A stretch of 64,000 bases of DNA from Pseudomonadota bacterium (GTDB taxonomy: Bacteria; Myxococcota; JACRCW01; JAFGSX01): assembly GCA_043821645.1 (NCBI GenBank), contig JBDRCO010000044.1:6910-70909 (forward strand). Direction: 5' to 3'. The first letter of the stretch is position 1, and each line of letters begins with the position of its first letter. Below the pieces are notes generated by a model. That model was not told the origin of the DNA. It saw only the letters and a list, made by a program, of their open reading frames with translations, and did not search any database. The position numbers and the translations under genes are program-made. Positions 41,399 through 58,203 of this stretch are shown piece after piece.

Positions 41399-42145
41399 TC
41401 AGCGTCGCGCCACCACCACCAGTCGCTCGGCCTCGTGATCGTAGGGCGTGCCGTGCAGGCTGCCAAAGCTCTGCACCTGGTCGAAACCCACGTCGCGCAG
41501 AAGGCCTTCGAGCTCGCTGGCAGCGTACAAGCGGTGTTCGACCACCACCTGCACGGTCTGGCCCTGGCGCAGCAAGGTCCACTGGTTGCGGATCCAGCCA
41601 AAGCTGTGCTGCAGCTCCCTGTCCTCGATGATCAGCGTGCCGTCGGCCAGGCGATCCCAGTCGCGCTGCCTGAACTTGCGGGCCAGGATCTCCTTGCCCA
41701 GCAGGTCCATGACCAGCACGCCACCAGGCTTGAGGCTCTGCCGCAGCTTGTCGAGCACCTGCCTGTCCTGAGCCGGGTCCTCGAAGTAGCCAAAGGCGGT
41801 GAACAGGTTGACCGCGAGATCAAAGGCACGCGGTCTCACGAAGTGCCGCATGTCGTCCTGCACCCACTCCACCTGCAGCCCCGCGTCGCTCGCGCGCGCG
41901 CCCGCGCGTTCGAGGTAGGCCGCGGTCCTGTCGACGCCGGTGACGGTGAAGCCGCGGCGCGCCAGCTCCACAGCGTGGCGGCCCGGGCCGCAGCACAGGT
42001 CGAGCACACTACCGGGCGGACGGACCTGGACCAGGCCGAGCAGCGCCTCGATCTCTGCCGGTGCCGCGGCAAAGCGGTCCTCGTCGAACATCACGGGATC
42101 GAAGTCGCGCCAGAACGCGTCGTCGTCATGCCAGGGGACGGTCAT
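41399..42145 (-). CDS. Class I SAM-dependent methyltransferase
   Basis: VLDLCCGPGRH, VTGVDR, DDMR, FDLAVNLFTAFGYF, LKPGG. Confidence 0.9.
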   Translation of the reverse strand: MTVPWHDDDAFWRDFDPVMFDEDRFAAAPAEIEALLGLVQVRPPGSVLDLCCGPGRHAVELARRGFTVTGVDRTAAYLERAGARASDAGLQVEWVQDDMRHFVRPRAFDLAVNLFTAFGYFEDPAQDRQVLDKLRQSLKPGGVLVMDLLGKEILARKFRQRDWDRLADGTLIIEDRELQHSFGWIRNQWTLLRQGQTVQVVVEHRLYAASELEGLLRDVGFDQVQSFGSLHGTPYDHEAERLVVVARR

Positions 42146-42720
42146 CGCGGTCTCCCCGGGGTGGGCTCCCCGGTGGCGGTCCCAAAACCTCGCAGGCAAC
42201 TGCCCAGCGCGGGCAGGTCGTCCAGCAGCTCGCGCAGACCGGGCTCGCGAGCGCGCTCCAGGATCGCGTGGGTGGCCTCGTGCACGCGATGCTCTTCGCG
42301 CTGTTTCTCGTCGTCACTGCTCTCGAAACGCGCCAGACGCCGGGCAAAGCGCACCACGTGCACCAGCTCGTGTACCAGCAGGAACAGCAGCAGTGCCCCG
42401 GCGCGGGCTCCCTGGTCGACGGCGGCCAGGATGTGCGGGTCCCACAGGCACACCCGGTAGTGGATGCGCCGCCTGTCCCGCGCCGAGCGTTCCTCGCGGG
42501 TGAGGTCGCAGCGCTGCACCTCCGCGAGCTGGGTGGGCGAGGGCGGGGGCGCGATGTCCAGACCCTGCAGTTCGACGGCGGTGACGACGTCGTAGGGTGC
42601 CTGTCGCAGGTCAAAGGCGCTGAGCCTGAAGTGATCGCCGCACAGGTCCTCAGCCAGTCGCAACGTGCGCTGCACCTCGGCCCGCATGGCGTCGTCGAAC
42701 AGGCGCATGATCTGCCCCAC
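42142..42720 (-). CDS. Conserved hypothetical protein with HExxH (zincin-like) motif
   Basis: LLVHELVHVVRF followed by EEHRVH. Alternative ATG at 42708. Confidence 0.55.
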   Translation of the reverse strand: MGQIMRLFDDAMRAEVQRTLRLAEDLCGDHFRLSAFDLRQAPYDVVTAVELQGLDIAPPPSPTQLAEVQRCDLTREERSARDRRRIHYRVCLWDPHILAAVDQGARAGALLLFLLVHELVHVVRFARRLARFESSDDEKQREEHRVHEATHAILERAREPGLRELLDDLPALGSCLRGFGTATGEPTPGRPR

Positions 42721-42817: not shown

Positions 42818-43594
42818 TCAGTTCAGCAGCACGGCCAGCACCAGCACCGCGGTCTGCGCCACCTCGACGCTGGCACCCAGCACATCGCCGGTGACGCCGC
42901 CGAGCACGCGCTCGGCCCAGCGCGCCATCGCCCAGCCCAGGCCGAGGCCTGCGGCCAGCAGCAGGATCCAGCCAAAAGGCCACGCCAGCACCACGCCGGC
43001 CGCGAGGGCAGTCACCGACGCCATCCGCAGCCAGTCGCCCTGCACCTTGCCCACCAGCAGGCGGCCCAGGCTGTTCACGCCGGCCCAGTCCGGCGGCCGG
43101 CACACGAAGGCCACCACCACTGCGGCCAGTCTTCCGACGACGGGAGCGAGCACCACGGCGCCGAGGTGTCCGGCATGCAGCAGCGATCCCGCGGCCACGG
43201 CCTGCAGCGCCAGCACCAGAAACACCGCCACCGCGCCCATCACGCCGACCCGGCTGTCCTTGAGGATCTTGCCTGCGTCCTCGCCGCGCTTGCCCGAGAG
43301 CAGGCCGTCAAAGCTGTCGGCCAGGCCGTCGATGTGAAACGCGCCGGTGACCAGCGCCCAGGTGGCGATGGTGAGCAGCCCGGGCAGCAGGCTCTGCTCG
43401 GGGGCCAGCCACGACACCGCGCCGCCCACCAGCAGGCCGCACAGCCCGACCACCAGGCCCACCGCAGGATAGAACGCTGTCAGCGACGGGATCTCCTCCT
43501 CGCTGGGAGCGCGCCCCAGCTTCACCGGCAGGCGCGTCAGGTACTGCAGCGCGGCGAGCGCTCGGAACGCCAGATCGGGCGGGGCTGTACTCAT
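42818..43594 (-). CDS. cobS: Adenosylcobinamide-GDP ribazoletransferase (cobalamin synthase)
   Basis: LQYLTRLP, FYPAVG, GAFHIDGLADSFDG, LKDSRVGVMG, GGVTGDVLGA. Confidence 0.95.
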   Translation of the reverse strand: MSTAPPDLAFRALAALQYLTRLPVKLGRAPSEEEIPSLTAFYPAVGLVVGLCGLLVGGAVSWLAPEQSLLPGLLTIATWALVTGAFHIDGLADSFDGLLSGKRGEDAGKILKDSRVGVMGAVAVFLVLALQAVAAGSLLHAGHLGAVVLAPVVGRLAAVVVAFVCRPPDWAGVNSLGRLLVGKVQGDWLRMASVTALAAGVVLAWPFGWILLLAAGLGLGWAMARWAERVLGGVTGDVLGASVEVAQTAVLVLAVLLN

Positions 43595-43598
43595 GACC

Positions 43599-44663
43599 TC
43601 ATCTCACGGCGCGGGTCACGCCCGCGGCCTCGAAGATCGCCATCTCGTTGAGGACCTTGACCCCGGCCTCGATCACGAACATGGCCAGGGCCGCGCCCGT
43701 GCCCTCGCCCAGGCGCAGGTCCAGGTCGAGCAGCGGTCTCAGGTCCAGGCGCTCGAGCATGACGGTATGCCCGACCTCGACCGAGCGGTGCGAGGCAAAC
43801 ATGTACTGGGCGCTTGCCGGGCACAGCGCGTGCGCCAGCAGGGCGCCGGCGGTCGAGATGAAGCCGTCGACGACCACGGGCAGCCTGTTCTTGGCCGCGC
43901 CCAGCACCAGCCCGGCCAGGCCCCCGATCTCGAGCCCGCCGACCTTGCTCAGCACGTCGATGGGGTCCCCGGGATCGGGCGCATTGACGTCGAGGGCGCG
44001 GCGCACCACGGCGATCTTGTGCGCCAGGGTGGCGTCGTCGACGCCGGTGCCGCGGCCGGTGACCTCGGCGGGATCGCGGCCACTGAGGCAGGCCACGATG
44101 GCGGCCGAGGGCGTCGAGTTGGCGATGCCCATTTCGCCTGTGCCCAGCAACTGCACCCGGCCCTCGCGCACCAGCGCGTCGACGATCTCGATGCCCACCT
44201 CGATGCTGCGCTTGGCCAGCGCGCGGTCCATGGCCGGGCCGCGGGCGATGTTGGCGGTGCCCCGGGCCAGCTTGCGGTCGATGACGCCCGGAATGCCGGT
44301 CAGGTCGCCGTTGACGCCGAGGTCGACCACCATGAGCTCGGCTCCCGCGTGGCGGCCGAGCACGTTGATGCCGGCGCCACCCGCGGCGAAGTTCTTCATC
44401 ATCTCGATGGTGACTTCGGGTGGCATGCGGCTGACGTTCTCCTCGACCACACCATGGTCGCCGCCCAGGGTCACCAGTACCTTGGTCGCCACCGATGGCT
44501 GCCGCTGGCGGGTGATGGCCACCACGCGCCGCGCGCACTCCTCGAGCCGGCCCAGGCTCCCCGGCGGCTTGGTCTGGTTGTCCAGGCGTTGCTGGGCCCA
44601 GGCCATCAGCTCGGCGTCCACGGGCTCGATGCGATCCAGGGTTTCTTGCAGCAAGGATTTCAT
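43599..44663 (-). CDS. cobT: Nicotinate-nucleotide-dimethylbenzimidazole phosphoribosyltransferase
   Basis: [48 protein letters not shown]. Confidence 0.96.
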
Positions 44664-44688
44664 GGCGATCTTTCCAGGGGGCGTCGGC

Positions 44689-45231
44689 TCACGCCTCGTT
44701 CAGGAGCGCTGGCTCGTGTCCCTTGAGCACCAGGGGCAGCCCGGACACCATGACGACCACGGCGTCGCAGCTCGCGGCCATCTTCTGGTTGAGCGAGCCC
44801 AGGGCGTCGCGGTAGCGCCGGCTCAGGGCGTCGCCGGGCACCAGGCCCAGGCCCACCTCGTTGCTCACCAGCAACACCGGCACCCGGCACGAGCGCAGGG
44901 CCGCGTCCAGGGCGTCGAAGCGGCGTGCCAGCTCGTCGTCGTCGAGCTCGGCGCACAGCAGGTTGCTGACCCACAGGGTCAGGCAGTCGAGCACCACCAC
45001 GTCGTGCTGGGGGCCGTGGCGCAGCAGGGCCATGGCCGGCGCCATCGCTTCCTCCACCGTGGTCCAGCCCTCGCCGCGCTCGGCCTGGTGGCGAGCGATG
45101 CGGGCCTGCATCTCGTCGTCGCCGGGTTCGGCGGTGGCCACGAACAGGCGTCGCGGTCCCAGACGTTCAGCCACCTGCTGGGCGCGGGCGCTCTTGCCCG
45201 AGCGCGCGCCTCCCGTGTACAGGACCTTCAC
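44689..45231 (-). CDS. cobU: Bifunctional adenosylcobinamide kinase / phosphate guanylyltransferase
   Basis: [40 protein letters not shown]. Confidence 0.96.
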
Positions 45232-46037
45232 CCACCACCCCCGGATCCGGGCCAGCTCGTCGCGAGCGCCTTCAGGGACGACTCGAAAGCCTCGACGCCG
45301 AACACCTCCACCGTCACCACGCCCTGGTATGCGCGCTCCTGCAAGGTCTGCAGGATTCCCGCAAGGGGTGGAAAATGCTCAAGAGATCTGTGATCTCTGT
45401 CCGCCACGCCATGGATGTGGATGTGGTTCGTGCACTCCAGGTTGGCAGCCAGGATGGGCAGCGGATCCGCATGCGCATAGTGCACATGGCCGAGGTCCAG
45501 GCACAGGCTGCAGCCGCTGTGTTCTGCCAGGGCCCGGTTGCAGGCCACGTCGTAGGCCCACTGGTTTTCCACCGCCAGCCGGAGGGGGTCCACCCCGGCC
45601 AGCTCGGCGATGCGAGCCAGGCCGCAACGCGCGCGTTCGACCCAGGTGTGCAGCGCGTCGCCTGCTTCTGGAGGCGCGGGCACGATGTGCAGCACGCCGG
45701 CCGACGGCGCCAGGGGCTCGATCAGCCGCAACATGGCGGCCACGGCCTGGGCCGAGCGCTCACAAGGGTCTCCGTCCAGGGCCACCAGGGTCGGCAGGTG
45801 CACGCTGTAGCTCAGGCCCGTGTCGCGGCCAATGGCAGCCATGCGTGCGATGGCGTCGGGGTCTGGCAGATCGCCCTCGGGTTCCAGCAGCAGGATCTGC
45901 ACATCGTCGACCCGGTCCTGCAGCCACTCCACATTGGGCAGCAGGTGGTCGGGGAGCACGAAGGAGCTGGTGCCCAGGCGGAAGGAACGGCTCAGGGCGG
46001 GCAGGATGGGGCGGTGCGAGGGCATTTTTTTCAGCAT
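45228..46037 (-). CDS. cbiR: Cobamide-remodelling phosphodiesterase CbiR-like (AP endonuclease 2 fold)
   Basis: RLGTSSFVLP...NV..L...VDDVQILLLE, YSVHLP, LAVEN, CLDLGH, HIHG...DH.SL, TVEVF. GTGA overlap with cobU. Confidence 0.65.
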   Translation of the reverse strand: MLKKMPSHRPILPALSRSFRLGTSSFVLPDHLLPNVEWLQDRVDDVQILLLEPEGDLPDPDAIARMAAIGRDTGLSYSVHLPTLVALDGDPCERSAQAVAAMLRLIEPLAPSAGVLHIVPAPPEAGDALHTWVERARCGLARIAELAGVDPLRLAVENQWAYDVACNRALAEHSGCSLCLDLGHVHYAHADPLPILAANLECTNHIHIHGVADRDHRSLEHFPPLAGILQTLQERAYQGVVTVEVFGVEAFESSLKALATSWPGSGGGG

Positions 46038-46162
46038 GTTCGCCGCTGTCGAGGCCTTCAGGATGTCATGGCGGCAACCCGAAGTCGCCAAAAAATCCGT
46101 TGACGAACTATCTTGTGGTGCCTATCTCAATGGCAGGACCGCTTGCTGCGCGGAGGTACACG

Positions 46163-46498
46163 ATGCCCATCTACGAATATCACTGTGATGGCTGCGGCCA
46201 CGAGTTCGAAGAGATGCAGAAGGTGAACGATGCGCCGGTGACCCGCTGCGAGACCTGCGGCGGCGACAAGGTGGTGCGCCTGATCTCGCGCTCCAGCTTC
46301 CAGCTCAAGGGCGGGGGCTGGTACGCCGACCTGTACGGCTCGAGTTCCTCCAAGGGCAAGAACAGCCCGAGCAGCAGCACCGCCTCGACCCCAGCGTCGA
46401 GTTCGAGCACCACATCGACCAGCTCGACCAGTCCGTCGTCGTCGACGGCGTCGACCAGCAGCGCGTCGAGCACCCCGGCCGCTTCCAGCAAGAGCTAG
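46163..46498 (+). CDS. FmdB-family zinc-ribbon putative regulator with Ser-rich tail
   Basis: MPIYEYHCDGCGHEFE...CETCGG..V.RLIS..SFQLKGGGWYADLY. GGAGG RBS. Confidence 0.9.
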   Translation: MPIYEYHCDGCGHEFEEMQKVNDAPVTRCETCGGDKVVRLISRSSFQLKGGGWYADLYGSSSSKGKNSPSSSTASTPASSSSTTSTSSTSPSSSTASTSSASSTPAASSKS

Positions 46499-46561: not shown

Positions 46562-46580
46562 CGGTGGCAGCGTGCCACCG
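46562..46580. other. Perfect 8-bp hairpin downstream of the FmdB-like gene
   Basis: CGGTGGCA-gcg-TGCCACCG. No downstream U-tract. Confidence 0.35.
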
Positions 46581-46724
46581 CATGCCTGCTGCTGCGGGCT
46601 GGTGGGCCAAATTGCGTTGCATGCCAGCCATCTGTCTGCGACTTTTGCCCAAGCTTTTCGTCGAGCAAGAGACCCAGATGTAGGACCAAGGCATGGTCCG
46701 CAGAGATCCTGGGAAGGACGCCTC

Positions 46725-48707
46725 ATGACAAGCCGAATTGCGGGTTGTGACGCACACCTCAACGAGGCGGGGCCCGGGCCCATCCACCTCGGGACGCTCA
46801 CGCTCGCCGGCCTGCTCCTCCTTGCGCTCCTTGGCTGTCCCGGTGCGGTGCGCGCCCCGGGTGAGCAGATCTGTGCACCTGGCCAGAAGGCTTGCGAGGA
46901 CGGCGTGCTGCTGTCCTGCAGTGCCGACGGTACCCAGATCGAGCACCGCACGGACTGCGCGCCGGGTATCTGCCGCAACGCGGCCTGCGTGACGCTCGAT
47001 GGCGGCACCAGCGACGCCAGTGCCGGTGACGGCTGGGTCCCGTGTGGCCAGAGCTCGTGCAGCGGCTTCACCTATTGCGACGACGTCAGCGACGAGTGCC
47101 TTCCCGGCTGTGCCGGCGACGGGCAGTGCCAGGCCCACGAGCGCTGCGAGCAGCAGAGCCACAGCTGCGTGTGCCAGACCGGCTTTCATCGCTGCGGCCA
47201 GGCCTGCGTGAGCGATGGCGAACCGGCCACCTGTGGCTCGAGTTGCGCCCCCTGCCCGGGTCTGCTCAACGGCCATGCCACCTGTGACCTCGGCGCCTGC
47301 GGTCTTGCCTGCGACGCCAACTTTCACTTCTGCGGCGAGGTCTGCGCGTCGAACAGCGACCTCGCGACCTGTGGCCAGCGCTGCGAGGTCTGCCCCGACG
47401 ACGCGCACGGCGTCGCCATCTGCCAGGACCAGAGCTGTGCCGCCACCTGCCATATCGGGTATCACTGGTGCACGGGGGGCTGCGCCCTCGACCGCGACGT
47501 GGCGAGTTGTGGCCAGCGCTGCGAGCCCTGCCCCGACGACGCCAACGGCGTCGCCAGCTGCACCGACGGCCAGTGCGGCCTGGCCTGCAACGCGGGCTAT
47601 CTGGCCTGCGGTCAGGGCTGCGCCCCGTGTCCTGACATCGCCAACTCCATCGGTGCCTGCGCGGCCAGCAGCTGCGTCTTCGCGGGCTGCGTGACGGGCT
47701 ACCGCGTGTGCGGTCAAGCCTGCTGCCCGTTCACCGTGACCCAGGTGGCCGCGGCGTCGCTCATGGGGGACAGCGACGTGGCCGTGGATGGCGCGGGCAC
47801 GGCACACCTGGTCTGGCATACCTACCCCAGTGGTGGCCTCCATTATCAGGCGGGTCTTACTGGAACACCGGAAGACATCGAACCCGGCGATGGGGAGGGG
47901 CAGTACCTCGCCCTGGCCCTGGACAGCAGCGAGCGCCCCGTCGTGGCGTACTATCATGAAGTCGACAAGCAGTTGAAGTTCGCGACCCGGGAGAGCACAG
48001 GCTGGACCGTCGAGGTGGTCGATGCCGACGGCGATGTGGGCTCGTATGTGTCGCTCGACCTCGACAGTGGAGGCCAGCCGCACATCGCCTACTACGACAG
48101 CGATGGCAAGAATCTCAAGTACGCGGCGCACAGTGCCCAGGGCTGGAGCGTACAGTTTGTCGATCTGGCTACCGACGTCGGGATCTATGCGGCACTGCGC
48201 CTGGATGCCGCGGACCATGCCCACATCGCCTACTGGGATCAGAACCGGTCGGTGCTGCGGTACGCGCGCTGGACGGGGACGACCTGGCTGTTCGAGGACG
48301 TCGATTCCGGCCTGTACACGGCCCCCCTGATCGACCTGGCCCTCGACCCGGCCGGGAACCCCCACATCAGCTACGTCAAGCCATCCACCCTTCGCCACGC
48401 AGCCTTCAACGGCACGAGCTGGCAGTTCGAGGAGCTGTTCCCGGGGGTGGTGACCTCGAAAACCTCGATCGAGATCGACGCCGGTGGTCTGATCCATGTG
48501 CTCTATGTCAACCGGGGCGATGCGCAGCAGACCTACGACCTGAACTATCTCCTGCTATCCGGGGGGCGGTGGTACCGCACGATCGTGGCGGAAGACCTTG
48601 GTTTTCTGGGCGGCCGGCATAGCCTGTCCCTGGACGCCACGGGCAATCCGCACATCACCTACATGGACTACAACGCCAGCCCCGATAGCATCCACTACGC
48701 CCACTGA
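46725..48707 (+). CDS. Cys-rich-repeat lipoprotein with C-terminal propeller-like repeats
   Basis: LLGCP lipobox, 3-4 C..D..TCG..C..C...nG.A.C....C...C..G units, then repeats of sLaLD..G.PHIaYyd....LkYA. Confidence 0.7.
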   Translation: MTSRIAGCDAHLNEAGPGPIHLGTLTLAGLLLLALLGCPGAVRAPGEQICAPGQKACEDGVLLSCSADGTQIEHRTDCAPGICRNAACVTLDGGTSDASAGDGWVPCGQSSCSGFTYCDDVSDECLPGCAGDGQCQAHERCEQQSHSCVCQTGFHRCGQACVSDGEPATCGSSCAPCPGLLNGHATCDLGACGLACDANFHFCGEVCASNSDLATCGQRCEVCPDDAHGVAICQDQSCAATCHIGYHWCTGGCALDRDVASCGQRCEPCPDDANGVASCTDGQCGLACNAGYLACGQGCAPCPDIANSIGACAASSCVFAGCVTGYRVCGQACCPFTVTQVAAASLMGDSDVAVDGAGTAHLVWHTYPSGGLHYQAGLTGTPEDIEPGDGEGQYLALALDSSERPVVAYYHEVDKQLKFATRESTGWTVEVVDADGDVGSYVSLDLDSGGQPHIAYYDSDGKNLKYAAHSAQGWSVQFVDLATDVGIYAALRLDAADHAHIAYWDQNRSVLRYARWTGTTWLFEDVDSGLYTAPLIDLALDPAGNPHISYVKPSTLRHAAFNGTSWQFEELFPGVVTSKTSIEIDAGGLIHVLYVNRGDAQQTYDLNYLLLSGGRWYRTIVAEDLGFLGGRHSLSLDATGNPHITYMDYNASPDSIHYAH

Positions 48708-55146: not shown

Positions 55147-55545
55147 GTGAAGAAGGAAGAGGTCCGTGAGCTCACCCGACAGTTCGTCGCTGCGCTCGAG
55201 GAAGAAAAAGAGATCCGCACCAAGCTGCTCGAGCTCAAGATGCTGGGCAGCGATGACGAGGTCCGGCGCAACCTGCAGCGGCACGACGCCATGATCGACA
55301 GCATCAAGAAGCTGCGCGAGCAGAAGATGCTGCCCATCATCGACAAGCTGGGTGCCTTCATCGCAGACAAGGCTGGCACCAACCGCACGCCGCAACAGCG
55401 CCTGCGGGACGCCATCGGCGAGGGCAAGCAGAAGGTGGCCGAGAAGCGCCTGCACTCGGGCATGCCCGGCACCAAGAAGGCGCCCGCTACCGCCGTTCCG
55501 CCGGCCGCACCTACCAAGGAAAAGAAGACCAAGGCCAAGAAGTGA
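55147..55545 (+). CDS. Hypothetical coiled-coil protein with Lys/Ala/Pro tail
   Basis: GGAGG RBS and helical E/K/R-rich sequence. Located 7 nt upstream of the radical SAM gene. Confidence 0.7.
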   Translation: MKKEEVRELTRQFVAALEEEKEIRTKLLELKMLGSDDEVRRNLQRHDAMIDSIKKLREQKMLPIIDKLGAFIADKAGTNRTPQQRLRDAIGEGKQKVAEKRLHSGMPGTKKAPATAVPPAAPTKEKKTKAKK

Positions 55546-55552
55546 GCCCGGT

Positions 55553-57436
55553 ATGAGCACGACCGCCGACAAGAACGCCGACGGACGCGCCGCGCCGCGG
55601 ATGCTGTTTCTGTTCCCGCCGCAGTGGACGCCGCAGAACCCGCACTTCGTGCTGACCTCGCTCACCGGCACCCTGCGGGAGCGCGGTTACCACGTCGACG
55701 CGGTCGATCTGAACATCCTGTTCTACACCAGCATCCTCACCCGGGAGGCGCTGGAGCTGTCGCGCACGCGTGCCCTGCTCGAGCACAAGTTCCTGTGCGA
55801 CAAGCTGCGCCTGCAGTCCATCGTCGACGACACGGGGCTCGACTTTCAATTCGACGGCGCCAAGGCCGACCACATCGAGCACTACGTCAAGAGCCATCCC
55901 GACGAGTTTGCCTCGATCCCGACCCTGATCGCGGACGCCCTGGCGACCCTGCGCGATCCCGTGCGCTACTACGACCCCGAGCAGTTCTGCGACGCCATGG
56001 AGATCGTGGACAATGCGCTGGAGATCTACTCGCTGCCGTTTTGGCCCAGCACCCTGCAGTTCAACTTCTTCGAGCACCCCCTGGCCCAGCTCAACTTCGA
56101 AGACATCGTCGGCTACGTCGACAATGAGCATGGCAACATGTTCATCAATTTCTTCGAGCGGCAGCTGCCGACGCTGACCACGGGCCAGTACGACGTCATC
56201 GCCCTGAGCATCAACACCTTCTCGCAGGTGCTGCCCGGGTTGACCCTGGCGCGCATGCTCAAGCGCGCGGTGTCGCCGGATGTGCACATCAACATCGGCG
56301 GCAATTTCTTCAGCCGCGTGCTCGACAACCTGCGCCAGAGGCCGGCCTTCTTCGAGGAGTTCTGCCACAGCATCACCTTCAGCGAGGGCGAGCGGCCGCT
56401 CAGTGCGCTGCTCGACGCGGTGGCGGGCAAGCGCCCTCTCGACGAGGTGCCCAACCTGCTGTTCCTCACCGACGACGGCGGCACGGTCAAGCGCACCGAG
56501 GATGGCGAGCCCGAGCCTCTGGAGACGCGCGGCTTTCATGACCTGACCGGCCTGCCCATGTACCTGTACCTGATCCCGGACACCGTGCTCTGCCTCGAGG
56601 CCAGCAAGGGGTGCTACTGGGGGCGCTGCTCGTTCTGCGACTCCTTCTTTGGGGTACGCAAGGATCAGGCCTCGATCGATCGCGTGATCAACGAGATCAA
56701 GCACGTCAACCAGAAGTGGGGTGTACGCCACTTCGAGTTCACCGACGAGTGCATGACCCCTCAGTACATGGAGGATCTGGCCGACCGCATCCTCGCCGAG
56801 GGACTGGACATCAGCTGGCTGTGCAACGGTCGGCTGGAGCGCACCTTCACCCGCGAGCGGCTGTTCAAGCTGCACCAGGCGGGTCTCAACCTGGTGCTGT
56901 GGGGATTCGAGTCGGGCTCCAAGCGCATCCTCGATCTGATCAACAAGGGTGTCGGCTTCGAGGAGCGCTGGGACGTGCTGACGGACGCCGCCGACGCGGG
57001 CATCTGGAACAACGCGTACATCTTCTTTGGCTTCCCCACCGAGAGCAAGGACGAGGCCGATTCCACGGTGCGTGCGATCAGCGACCACACGGATCTGATC
57101 CACAGCTACGGGCGGTCGATCTTCACCCTGGGCAAGCAGAGCATCCTGCGCGACGAGGCCAAGAACTATGGCATCGTCGACATCCTGACCGATGACCAGG
57201 AGTTCTCGACCAACCTGTTCTTCAAGGCCAGTGCCGGCATGAGCGACGAGGAGTCCAAGGAGTTCTTGACCCAGAGCACGGTGCGCTGTGCAGCGGCCTA
57301 TGGCGGTGCGCCGCTGTGGATGTTCCTGCGCTATCGCGAGGACCTGCACCTGTACATCGCCAAGCACGGACGCGAGTACGTCAGTCGCTACCAGGTGCGC
57401 AGTCGAGTCGTCAGCAACTTCGAGAAGGTCTGGTAG
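55553..57436 (+). CDS. Cobalamin-binding-domain radical SAM protein
   Basis: N-terminal PPQW..P...L..L...G..V...DLNI, later HINIGG, SKGCYWGRCSFCD cluster motif, FTDE, WGFESG. Confidence 0.88.
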   Translation: MSTTADKNADGRAAPRMLFLFPPQWTPQNPHFVLTSLTGTLRERGYHVDAVDLNILFYTSILTREALELSRTRALLEHKFLCDKLRLQSIVDDTGLDFQFDGAKADHIEHYVKSHPDEFASIPTLIADALATLRDPVRYYDPEQFCDAMEIVDNALEIYSLPFWPSTLQFNFFEHPLAQLNFEDIVGYVDNEHGNMFINFFERQLPTLTTGQYDVIALSINTFSQVLPGLTLARMLKRAVSPDVHINIGGNFFSRVLDNLRQRPAFFEEFCHSITFSEGERPLSALLDAVAGKRPLDEVPNLLFLTDDGGTVKRTEDGEPEPLETRGFHDLTGLPMYLYLIPDTVLCLEASKGCYWGRCSFCDSFFGVRKDQASIDRVINEIKHVNQKWGVRHFEFTDECMTPQYMEDLADRILAEGLDISWLCNGRLERTFTRERLFKLHQAGLNLVLWGFESGSKRILDLINKGVGFEERWDVLTDAADAGIWNNAYIFFGFPTESKDEADSTVRAISDHTDLIHSYGRSIFTLGKQSILRDEAKNYGIVDILTDDQEFSTNLFFKASAGMSDEESKEFLTQSTVRCAAAYGGAPLWMFLRYREDLHLYIAKHGREYVSRYQVRSRVVSNFEKVW

Positions 57437-57447
57437 GGGAGAAAGCC

Positions 57448-58203
57448 ATGAATACAAAAGCCGGGTCCAACCTCAAGGAGAGCAAGGCGCGCGGCTGGGA
57501 GATCGATGCCCGGGGCCGCGTCAAGATCGTCGAGCCCTTCACCACCGATCCGCCCGACGAGTACTTCATCATGCGGTCCGAAAAGAACCAGGTGATGGAG
57601 ATCCAGGAGGTCAAGAAGCGCCCCGAGCTGGCGACCTGTGGTTTTCTCCAGTACGACGCGAAGAAGCACGTCGTGGCCTCGGTGTGGAAGGAGCGCAAGG
57701 GCATCGTCGTCACCAGCTTTTACTACAGCTACGACGAGCGCGGCACCATGACCCGGCGCGAGGAGAGGACCAAGACCGGACGGGTGCTGTACACCACCGA
57801 GTGTCGCTGCGACGACAGTGGCAACCTGCTCGAGGAGCGCTACCTGAAGGGTGAGGAGTTTCTGGGTCGCAACGAGTACACCTACGACGCCCAGAGCCGC
57901 ATCGCCAGCGAGACCCACTTCGACAACGAGGACAAGTGCTCGGGCTCGTACCACTTCAAGTACGACGAGAAGGGGCGCTGTATCTCCCGCGCCTGGCACA
58001 ACCTCGAGGGCAAGCTGATGACCACCTTCAGCTACACCCTGGACGACAAGGGCAACCGCATTCGCGCCGAGTTGCTCAAGGCGGGGCAGATCGAGAACGT
58101 GCAGGAGTTCACCTACGATGCCCGCGGCAACTTGCTCGAGGAGCGCTGGAAGGATGCCGACGGAACCCTGCTGCGCACCATCCCCCACAGGGCGGCGGAC
58201 TAG
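57448..58203 (+). CDS. Small YD/RHS-like repeat protein (no signal peptide, no toxin tip)
   Basis: About 6 repeats: YSYDERGT, CDDSGNL, YTYDAQSR, FKYDEKGR, YTLDDKGNR, FTYDARGNL. Confidence 0.75.
   Translation: MNTKAGSNLKESKARGWEIDARGRVKIVEPFTTDPPDEYFIMRSEKNQVMEIQEVKKRPELATCGFLQYDAKKHVVASVWKERKGIVVTSFYYSYDERGTMTRREERTKTGRVLYTTECRCDDSGNLLEERYLKGEEFLGRNEYTYDAQSRIASETHFDNEDKCSGSYHFKYDEKGRCISRAWHNLEGKLMTTFSYTLDDKGNRIRAELLKAGQIENVQEFTYDARGNLLEERWKDADGTLLRTIPHRAAD

Follow-up and report, generated by a model that had tools for sequence, protein, structure and literature searches.

We analyzed a 64,000-nucleotide stretch of DNA (the window) from contig JBDRCO010000044.1 of assembly GCA_043821645.1, which represents an uncultured member of the Myxococcota (7.07 Mb, 94.7% complete). 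On its minus strand, at 42818-46025, the window carries four intact, stop-free and closely spaced open reading frames (ORFs) in the order cbiR-cobU-cobT-cobS (Table 1). The cbiR and cobU frames overlap by 4 nucleotides (GTGA), and gaps of 25 and 4 nucleotides separate cobU from cobT and cobT from cobS, respectively. This close spacing suggests that the genes are co-transcribed as one operon. An in-frame ATG at 46037 lies four codons upstream of the cbiR start at 46025, but the latter is favored because it agrees with the recorded gene call and because relatives sharing 75-77% identity are also 265 amino acids long. An Rfam scan of the window detects no RNA element, and hence no riboswitch ahead of the cassette. 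A sigma-70-like match at 46052-46024 was rejected as the cassette promoter because it overlaps the start codon.

Table 1. Features of the cbiR-cobU-cobT-cobS locus and its flanks, with positions in the window (G001 is a genome of the same family)
Feature	Position	Strand	Basis
cbiR, predicted cobamide-remodeling phosphodiesterase (AP endonuclease 2 TIM barrel), 265 aa	45228..46025	-	NF041277, conserved residues, AlphaFold model, tree
cobU, adenosylcobinamide kinase / cobinamide-phosphate guanylyltransferase, 180 aa	44689..45231	-	PF02283 E 2e-57; NF004469; motifs
cobT, nicotinate-nucleotide:base phosphoribosyltransferase, 354 aa	43599..44663	-	TIGR03160; active-site residues
cobS, cobamide-5'-phosphate synthase (membrane protein), 258 aa	42818..43594	-	PF02654 E 1e-46; TIGR00317; motifs
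Divergent cbiR / FmdB-type zinc-ribbon intergenic region, probable promoter region	46026..46162		~60-nt block kept in two relatives
FmdB-family zinc-ribbon gene, flank outside cassette	46163..46498	+	TIGR02605; in G001 without cassette
Conserved hypothetical zincin-like protein, flank outside cassette	42142..42720	-	Atlas structure neighbors zincin-like

A first-pass annotation, made from the letters alone, had described the locus as a cbiR-like/cobU/cobT/cobS set, and all four products do exceed the curated cut-offs of their NCBIfam models: CbiR scores 198 bits against 105, CobU 180 against 161, CobT 437 against 319 and CobS 113 against 110. The Pfam assignments of the four proteins agree. 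The active-site residues Glu177 and Glu320 of CobT are intact, as are the CobU lysine of the P-loop (Lys13) and histidine of the RIxxH motif (His48) and the HxDGLAD and GGxTGD motifs in CobS.

The first gene belongs to the CbiR family, as judged from a curated hidden Markov model (HMM), conserved residues and phylogeny. Its product matches positions 1-248 of the 249 in NF041277, above the equivalog cut-off, which is the HMM match proposed as a check at first pass; PF01261 scores 59 bits against a cut-off of 31. Ten His, Asp and Glu columns of metal-binding type that are 93-100% conserved in 148 homologues are all kept (H76, H113, E153, D177, H180, H203, H205, D211, H212 and E240). The AlphaFold model, with a predicted local distance difference test score of 94.7, is a triosephosphate isomerase (TIM) barrel. 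Its Foldseek matches in the PDB are barrels from the superfamily of apurinic/apyrimidinic (AP) endonuclease 2 with 13-19% identity, and no CbiR structure is among them. In a tree of 32 sequences, the cassette protein joins the HMM-defined CbiRs with support of 100/99, and an approximately unbiased (AU) test rejects a forced grouping with sub-threshold AP2 proteins (p=0.005). The near relatives in this tree were chosen by similarity to the query and the outgroup consists of uncharacterized Myxococcota AP2 proteins, with the Akkermansia sequence and the reference enzymes of its paper left out. A grouping with generic sugar-phosphate isomerases, which the first-pass annotation had named, along with a lack of cobamide hydrolysis, as a refutation, was looked for and did not appear. 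Cobamide cleavage is the likely activity of this protein, as predicted by homology.

PF02277 matches once in the genome, so that no second cobT was detected beside that of the cassette. In an alignment made through E. coli CobT, the product has Met80 and Met88 at the specificity positions occupied by Ser80 and Gln88 in the Salmonella enzyme. The Salmonella residues favor adenine, and hydrophobic residues at these positions decrease the use of adenine and increase that of 5,6-dimethylbenzimidazole (PMC4657239, citing Crofts et al.). The cassette CobT is therefore predicted to disfavor adenine. The Met80/Met88 state is frequent among aligned CobTs and is no peculiarity of this one. The best PDB sequence match of the protein is ArsA (PDB 4hdk), from the phenolic-base phosphoribosyltransferase ArsAB of Sporomusa ovata, and ArsA shares the Met at the Gln88 position. 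However, ArsAB is a heterodimer encoded by tandem genes, whereas here a single cobT passes the ordinary CobT equivalog.

Ring-synthesis genes, noted at first pass as missing from the window, are found neither there nor in the rest of the assembly. About ten de novo genes were sought separately, including cbiC, cbiD, cbiG, cbiH, cbiL, cbiET and cobN, and none was detected; the same searches of the assembly failed to find cbiB, cobQ, cbiZ (PF01955), bluB, bza, metE, cobO, btuR, eutT and eutBC. Several apparent hits were set aside. A uroporphyrinogen methyltransferase is CysG and was rejected as a ring-synthesis gene, and a BzaF-like match is ThiC (score/cut-off 662/460; BzaB, 482/700). Two genes resemble cbiA/cobB, with scores above the CobB cut-off or strong matches, but both flank or sit within a dsr operon and were rejected as evidence of de novo synthesis. 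According to the title of a work among the references of PMC10591310, cbiA-like genes in dsr operons are DsrN, and by their dsr context both genes were assigned to this siroheme amidase type. The genome has the gene pattern of a cobinamide salvager, with cobU, cobT and cobS present and corrin-ring genes not found; this "Cbi salvager" class comprises 15% of genomes (PMC6461909).

Corrinoid scavenging, as proposed at first pass, is supported both by this lack of detected de novo genes and by a probable uptake operon elsewhere in the genome. One cobalamin riboswitch (109 bits) lies ~60 nucleotides upstream of a TonB-dependent receptor gene on contig C118, followed by three genes whose products are family-less or loosely matched and by btuF- and btuC-like genes; no ATP-binding cassette (ABC) ATPase gene was identified beside btuC on this contig. 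The three intervening genes (within C118:8250-16330) encode a 530-aa protein without family, a 283-aa EGF-like/LIC13354-like protein and a 410-aa LIC_13355-like lipoprotein, and are candidates for surface corrinoid-binding proteins. A PduO-type adenosyltransferase is present, as are the B12 enzymes MetH, methylmalonyl-CoA mutase, NrdJ and a QueG-like protein, a corrinoid protein, a CarH-like regulator and eight radical S-adenosylmethionine (SAM) ORFs whose B12-binding domain scores above cut-off. Because MetH is present and no MetE was found, the cell should depend on imported corrinoids. Besides the full MetH on contig C43, a split MetH-like cluster at C107:1740-3517, also present in G001, encodes one after the other an activation-domain fragment, a corrinoid protein and a domain of homocysteine methyltransferase type.

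The cassette is very probably an operon for cobamide remodeling and cobinamide salvage in a B12-dependent, non-producing member of the Myxococcota. Corrinoids would be imported by the riboswitch-led BtuB/BtuF/BtuC-like system on C118, presuming that this is its cargo, and would receive an adenosyl group from the PduO-type enzyme. CbiR would then hydrolyze the phosphoribosyl bond, yielding cobinamide-phosphate along with the former base as its alpha-riboside. CobU would make cobinamide-guanosine diphosphate (cobinamide-GDP), for which free cobinamide could also serve as a starting point, while CobT would activate a new base with nicotinate mononucleotide. CobS would join cobinamide-GDP and the activated base, and an unlinked phosphatase would presumably take off the 5'-phosphate. 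CbiB would not be needed in this scheme because the aminopropanol-phosphate linker is kept. The chemistry of the cleavage step, which is sensitive to oxygen and to EDTA, has been shown for the Akkermansia enzyme, and cbiR together with cobTSU and cobC suffices in E. coli (PMC7733943). This precedent and the failure to find cbiB and cobQ uphold the first-pass suggestion of rebuilding without CbiB.

The product is probably a benzimidazolyl cobamide made with an imported base, given that CobT has Met80/Met88 and that no bluB or bza was found. The same absences imply that a benzimidazole base would need to be imported; otherwise, the new base would be a purine in spite of the residues in CobT. In principle there is a selective pressure, since the cofactor is bound base-on by class II ribonucleotide reductase.

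The closest counterpart is the system of Akkermansia muciniphila, whose CbiR is Amuc_1679 (NF041277; Mok et al. 2020, PMC7733943). Shared with it are the full-length equivalog match, the AP endonuclease 2 TIM barrel and the conserved His/Asp/Glu set, the adjacency and co-orientation of cbiR with cobU, cobT and cobS, the lack of cobC among linked genes, and a host in which de novo synthesis, cbiZ and metE are missing. However, the Akkermansia locus also has cobDQ and cbiB, neither of which was found in the present genome. Further differences are that no transporter adjoins the cassette, that the host belongs to the Myxococcota, that its CbiR falls into an early-branching subclade, and that Akkermansia makes pseudo-B12 whereas the cassette CobT is predicted to disfavor adenine. 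An E. coli strain given cbiR remodels [Cre]Cba to B12 with its own cobTSU and cobC (PMC7733943), and E. coli has no CbiB-family gene, as seen in the control list of the cbiB search. The cassette shares with E. coli cobUST/cobC and with this strain the assembly of the nucleotide loop without ring synthesis or CbiB, as well as nearly the same gene set. It differs in the cobU-cobT-cobS order behind cbiR, in a PduO-type adenosyltransferase rather than BtuR, in having no clear CobC, and in CobT residues Met80/Met88 rather than Ser80/Gln88. CbiZ-dependent remodeling in Rhodobacter sphaeroides and Dehalococcoides serves the same purpose, namely removing the lower ligand and installing another, but CbiZ has another fold, cuts an amide bond and needs CbiB for the linker; with neither CbiZ nor CbiB found, this route was not detected in the genome.

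Several observations weigh against the remodeling pathway. To our knowledge just one CbiR has been characterized to date, and the cassette protein departs from the family majority at two positions (E43Q and D80L). It also branches early, in an eight-sequence subclade (95/88) that is sister to the remaining sampled CbiRs (92/91) and apart from the Anaeromyxobacter/Polyangia group. The C118 uptake genes, which otherwise answer the first-pass call for a BtuB search, fall below the BtuB/BtuF/BtuC equivalog cut-offs. No protein in the genome passes the CobC cut-off; one histidine phosphatase was found, which shares 29% identity with E. coli CobC and scores 96 bits against 163 for TIGR03162. At 94.7% completeness, moreover, gene absences are unproven.

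The divergence of the subclade, which comprises the cassette protein and about seven metagenomic relatives, could have a functional meaning. It is a tentative and rather unlikely idea that E43Q and other pocket changes mark a selective remodeler, one that cuts purinyl or phenolyl cobamides and spares the benzimidazolyl product of CobT. If true, this would speak to the question of why CbiR does not degrade the cofactor of the cell that makes it. Improbable as well is a plain cobUTS cobinamide-salvage operon in which the part played by the CbiR-family protein is accessory or altered, such as acting on some cobamides only or on damaged ones. The two substitutions and the early branching would suit such a role, CobU, CobT and CobS alone are enough for cobinamide salvage (PMC6461909), and how a promiscuous CbiR spares the cell's own product is unexplained (PMC7733943). 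Nonetheless, all invariant catalytic-type residues are kept, Gln occupies position 43 in 17 of the 148 homologues, the cut-off is little more than half of the HMM score, and the subclade retains the cbiR-cobU-cobT-cobS context.

Two further explanations have very little probability. The cassette could form the end of a de novo B12 pathway, the remainder of which lies in the unassembled 5% of the genome, as the incompleteness of the assembly and the two cbiA/cobB-like genes would allow; yet those genes are the DsrN of the dsr operon, CysG and ThiC explain the other matches, none of the de novo genes sought was found, and three relatives of the same class lack detectable cbiD and cobQ too. Equally remote is a chance neighborhood, with the first gene encoding a generic sugar-phosphate isomerase or endonuclease IV next to cobUTS: PF01261 is the sole Pfam match, relatives carry the JGI label "sugar phosphate isomerase/epimerase" and the best PDB folds are epimerase-like, but the scores for isomerase models are 13-17 bits where at least 290 would be required, the AU test rejects such a grouping, cobU adjacency holds across phyla, and comparison with G001 shows the gene to share its presence or absence with cobUTS.

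CbiR is uncommon in this phylum. It exceeds its cut-off in 11 of the 401 Myxococcota genomes searched, nine of them in the family that contains the Anaeromyxobacteraceae, whereas CobT occurs in 67. The host's class is represented by four genomes only in the collection searched; the other three carry MetH, whereas neither CobT nor CbiR turns up in their assembled part. More than 280 CbiR homologues have been published, 80% of them adjacent to cobamide genes; the published Table S1 contains no named myxobacterium, though it includes unnamed "Deltaproteobacteria" (PMC7733943). A search for plasmids with CbiR, a single-protein scan of named genomes and an exact look-up returned nothing. A well-supported Myxococcota CbiR clade covers Anaeromyxobacteraceae and Polyangia, including cultured Anaeromyxobacter oryzisoli SG63, and its genes often adjoin a gene for a divergent TonB receptor.

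Seven other loci share the order cbiR-cobU-cobT-cobS, namely the two nearest long contigs and five named genomes (Sandaracinaceae, two Anaeromyxobacter, one labeled Proteobacteria and Hydrogenedentota). A remodeling set without cbiB is thus not new, given this recurrence and the E. coli precedent. Adjacency of cbiR and cobU is conserved across phyla: among 19 named loci, several of which end at contig edges, 15 have cobU after cbiR and 6 have cbiB within 6 kb. In one genome (G382), a frameshift near residue 50-60 interrupts cbiR, behind which cobU and cobT follow; this indicates a pseudogene or an assembly error. Longer CbiR-family proteins also exist: P0194 (449 aa) combines PF01261 and PF02283 in a natural CbiR-CobU fusion, and P0017, P0051, P0055 and P0138 have 453-690 aa.

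In G001 (82% complete), a single contig carries both flanking genes without the cassette in between; ~190 nucleotides separate the zinc-ribbon gene from the hypothetical gene, whose product is 68% identical to the 42142-42720 protein. Because this site is empty between shared flanks, the four genes are either all present or all missing. Two metagenomic relatives with 75-77% identity keep the zinc-ribbon/cbiR/cobU arrangement and the intergenic block. The cassette has a GC content of 0.709 against 0.672, with 0.83-0.93 at third codon positions, and the contig has a tetranucleotide correlation of 0.997; with this native composition, a recent foreign origin or mis-binning is not indicated. An old gain of the cassette seems more likely than repeated loss.

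Downstream of the cassette, the zincin-like gene is possibly co-transcribed with it. Its product has no Pfam or NCBIfam match, carries an HExxH motif and belongs to a family without Pfam model that is frequent in Thermodesulfobacteriota. A SAM methyltransferase at 41399-42199 was rejected as a BzaC-like lower-ligand methylase because the Trichlorobacter lovleyi methyltransferase 3' of bzaF matches nothing in this genome and because no homologue appears in 60 metagenomic CobT loci. On the other side, a Cys-rich repeat and BNR-like propeller protein at 46572-48707 is, like the cassette, missing at the syntenic G001 site.

The first-pass annotation had also pointed to a B12-binding radical SAM enzyme about 10 kb away. 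A radical SAM gene does lie 9.5 kb from the cassette (55553-57436, plus strand; PF04055 E 4e-19), but its B12-binding domain is weakly supported, with PF02310 at 13 bits against 32 and TIGR03975 at 98 against 282; two of the genome's B12-binding radical SAM ORFs match its product at 26-33% identity. A link to the cassette was rejected, since the gene is part of a separate module on the opposite strand and the B12-domain score is weak; at most, it adds one to the many B12 users of this genome. The three-gene module (55147-58203) encodes a 132-aa protein without family, this enzyme, which distantly resembles C-methyltransferases of ribosomally synthesized and post-translationally modified peptides, and a small YD-repeat protein; GC content is lower in this module, at 0.62-0.64. 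At 1-31051, translations inspected by eye reveal a large cluster resembling exopolysaccharide biosynthesis (asparagine-synthase-like, acyl carrier, WecB/TagA-like and flippase-like proteins).

Elsewhere in the genome, C81:1-14342 holds a reductive-type dsr operon with dsrA, dsrB, a dsrD-like gene, a dsrL-like gene, dsrN, a tetratricopeptide repeat gene, dsrC, a dsrT-like gene, dsrMKJOP and a second dsrN at the contig end, so that two dsrN paralogues are present. The dsrD-like product (79 aa) is missed by Pfam and was placed by Atlas. These genes suggest that the host lineage is probably sulfite- or sulfate-reducing. The heme-copper oxidase family gives one partial match only, and an anoxic lifestyle would fit the oxygen sensitivity of CbiR. 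The idea that corrinoids possibly come from prey is unsupported: nothing found points to predation, for which genes were not surveyed, and other uncultured anaerobic Myxococcota are predicted to be non-predatory (10.1101/2021.07.06.451402).

The cassette leaves the known pathway unchanged and is an ordinary new example of a described system. Its new points are small: the lineage of the host, the divergence of its CbiR subclade, a syntenic site without the cassette in a same-family genome and the preference for benzimidazole predicted for CobT. Of modest importance, it would extend CbiR remodeling to a lineage of Myxococcota that is uncultured and probably reduces sulfite or sulfate. It is a natural minimal cbiR-cobUTS unit in a genome where no cbiB was found, and it offers a divergent second CbiR in a family of which only one member has been characterized so far.

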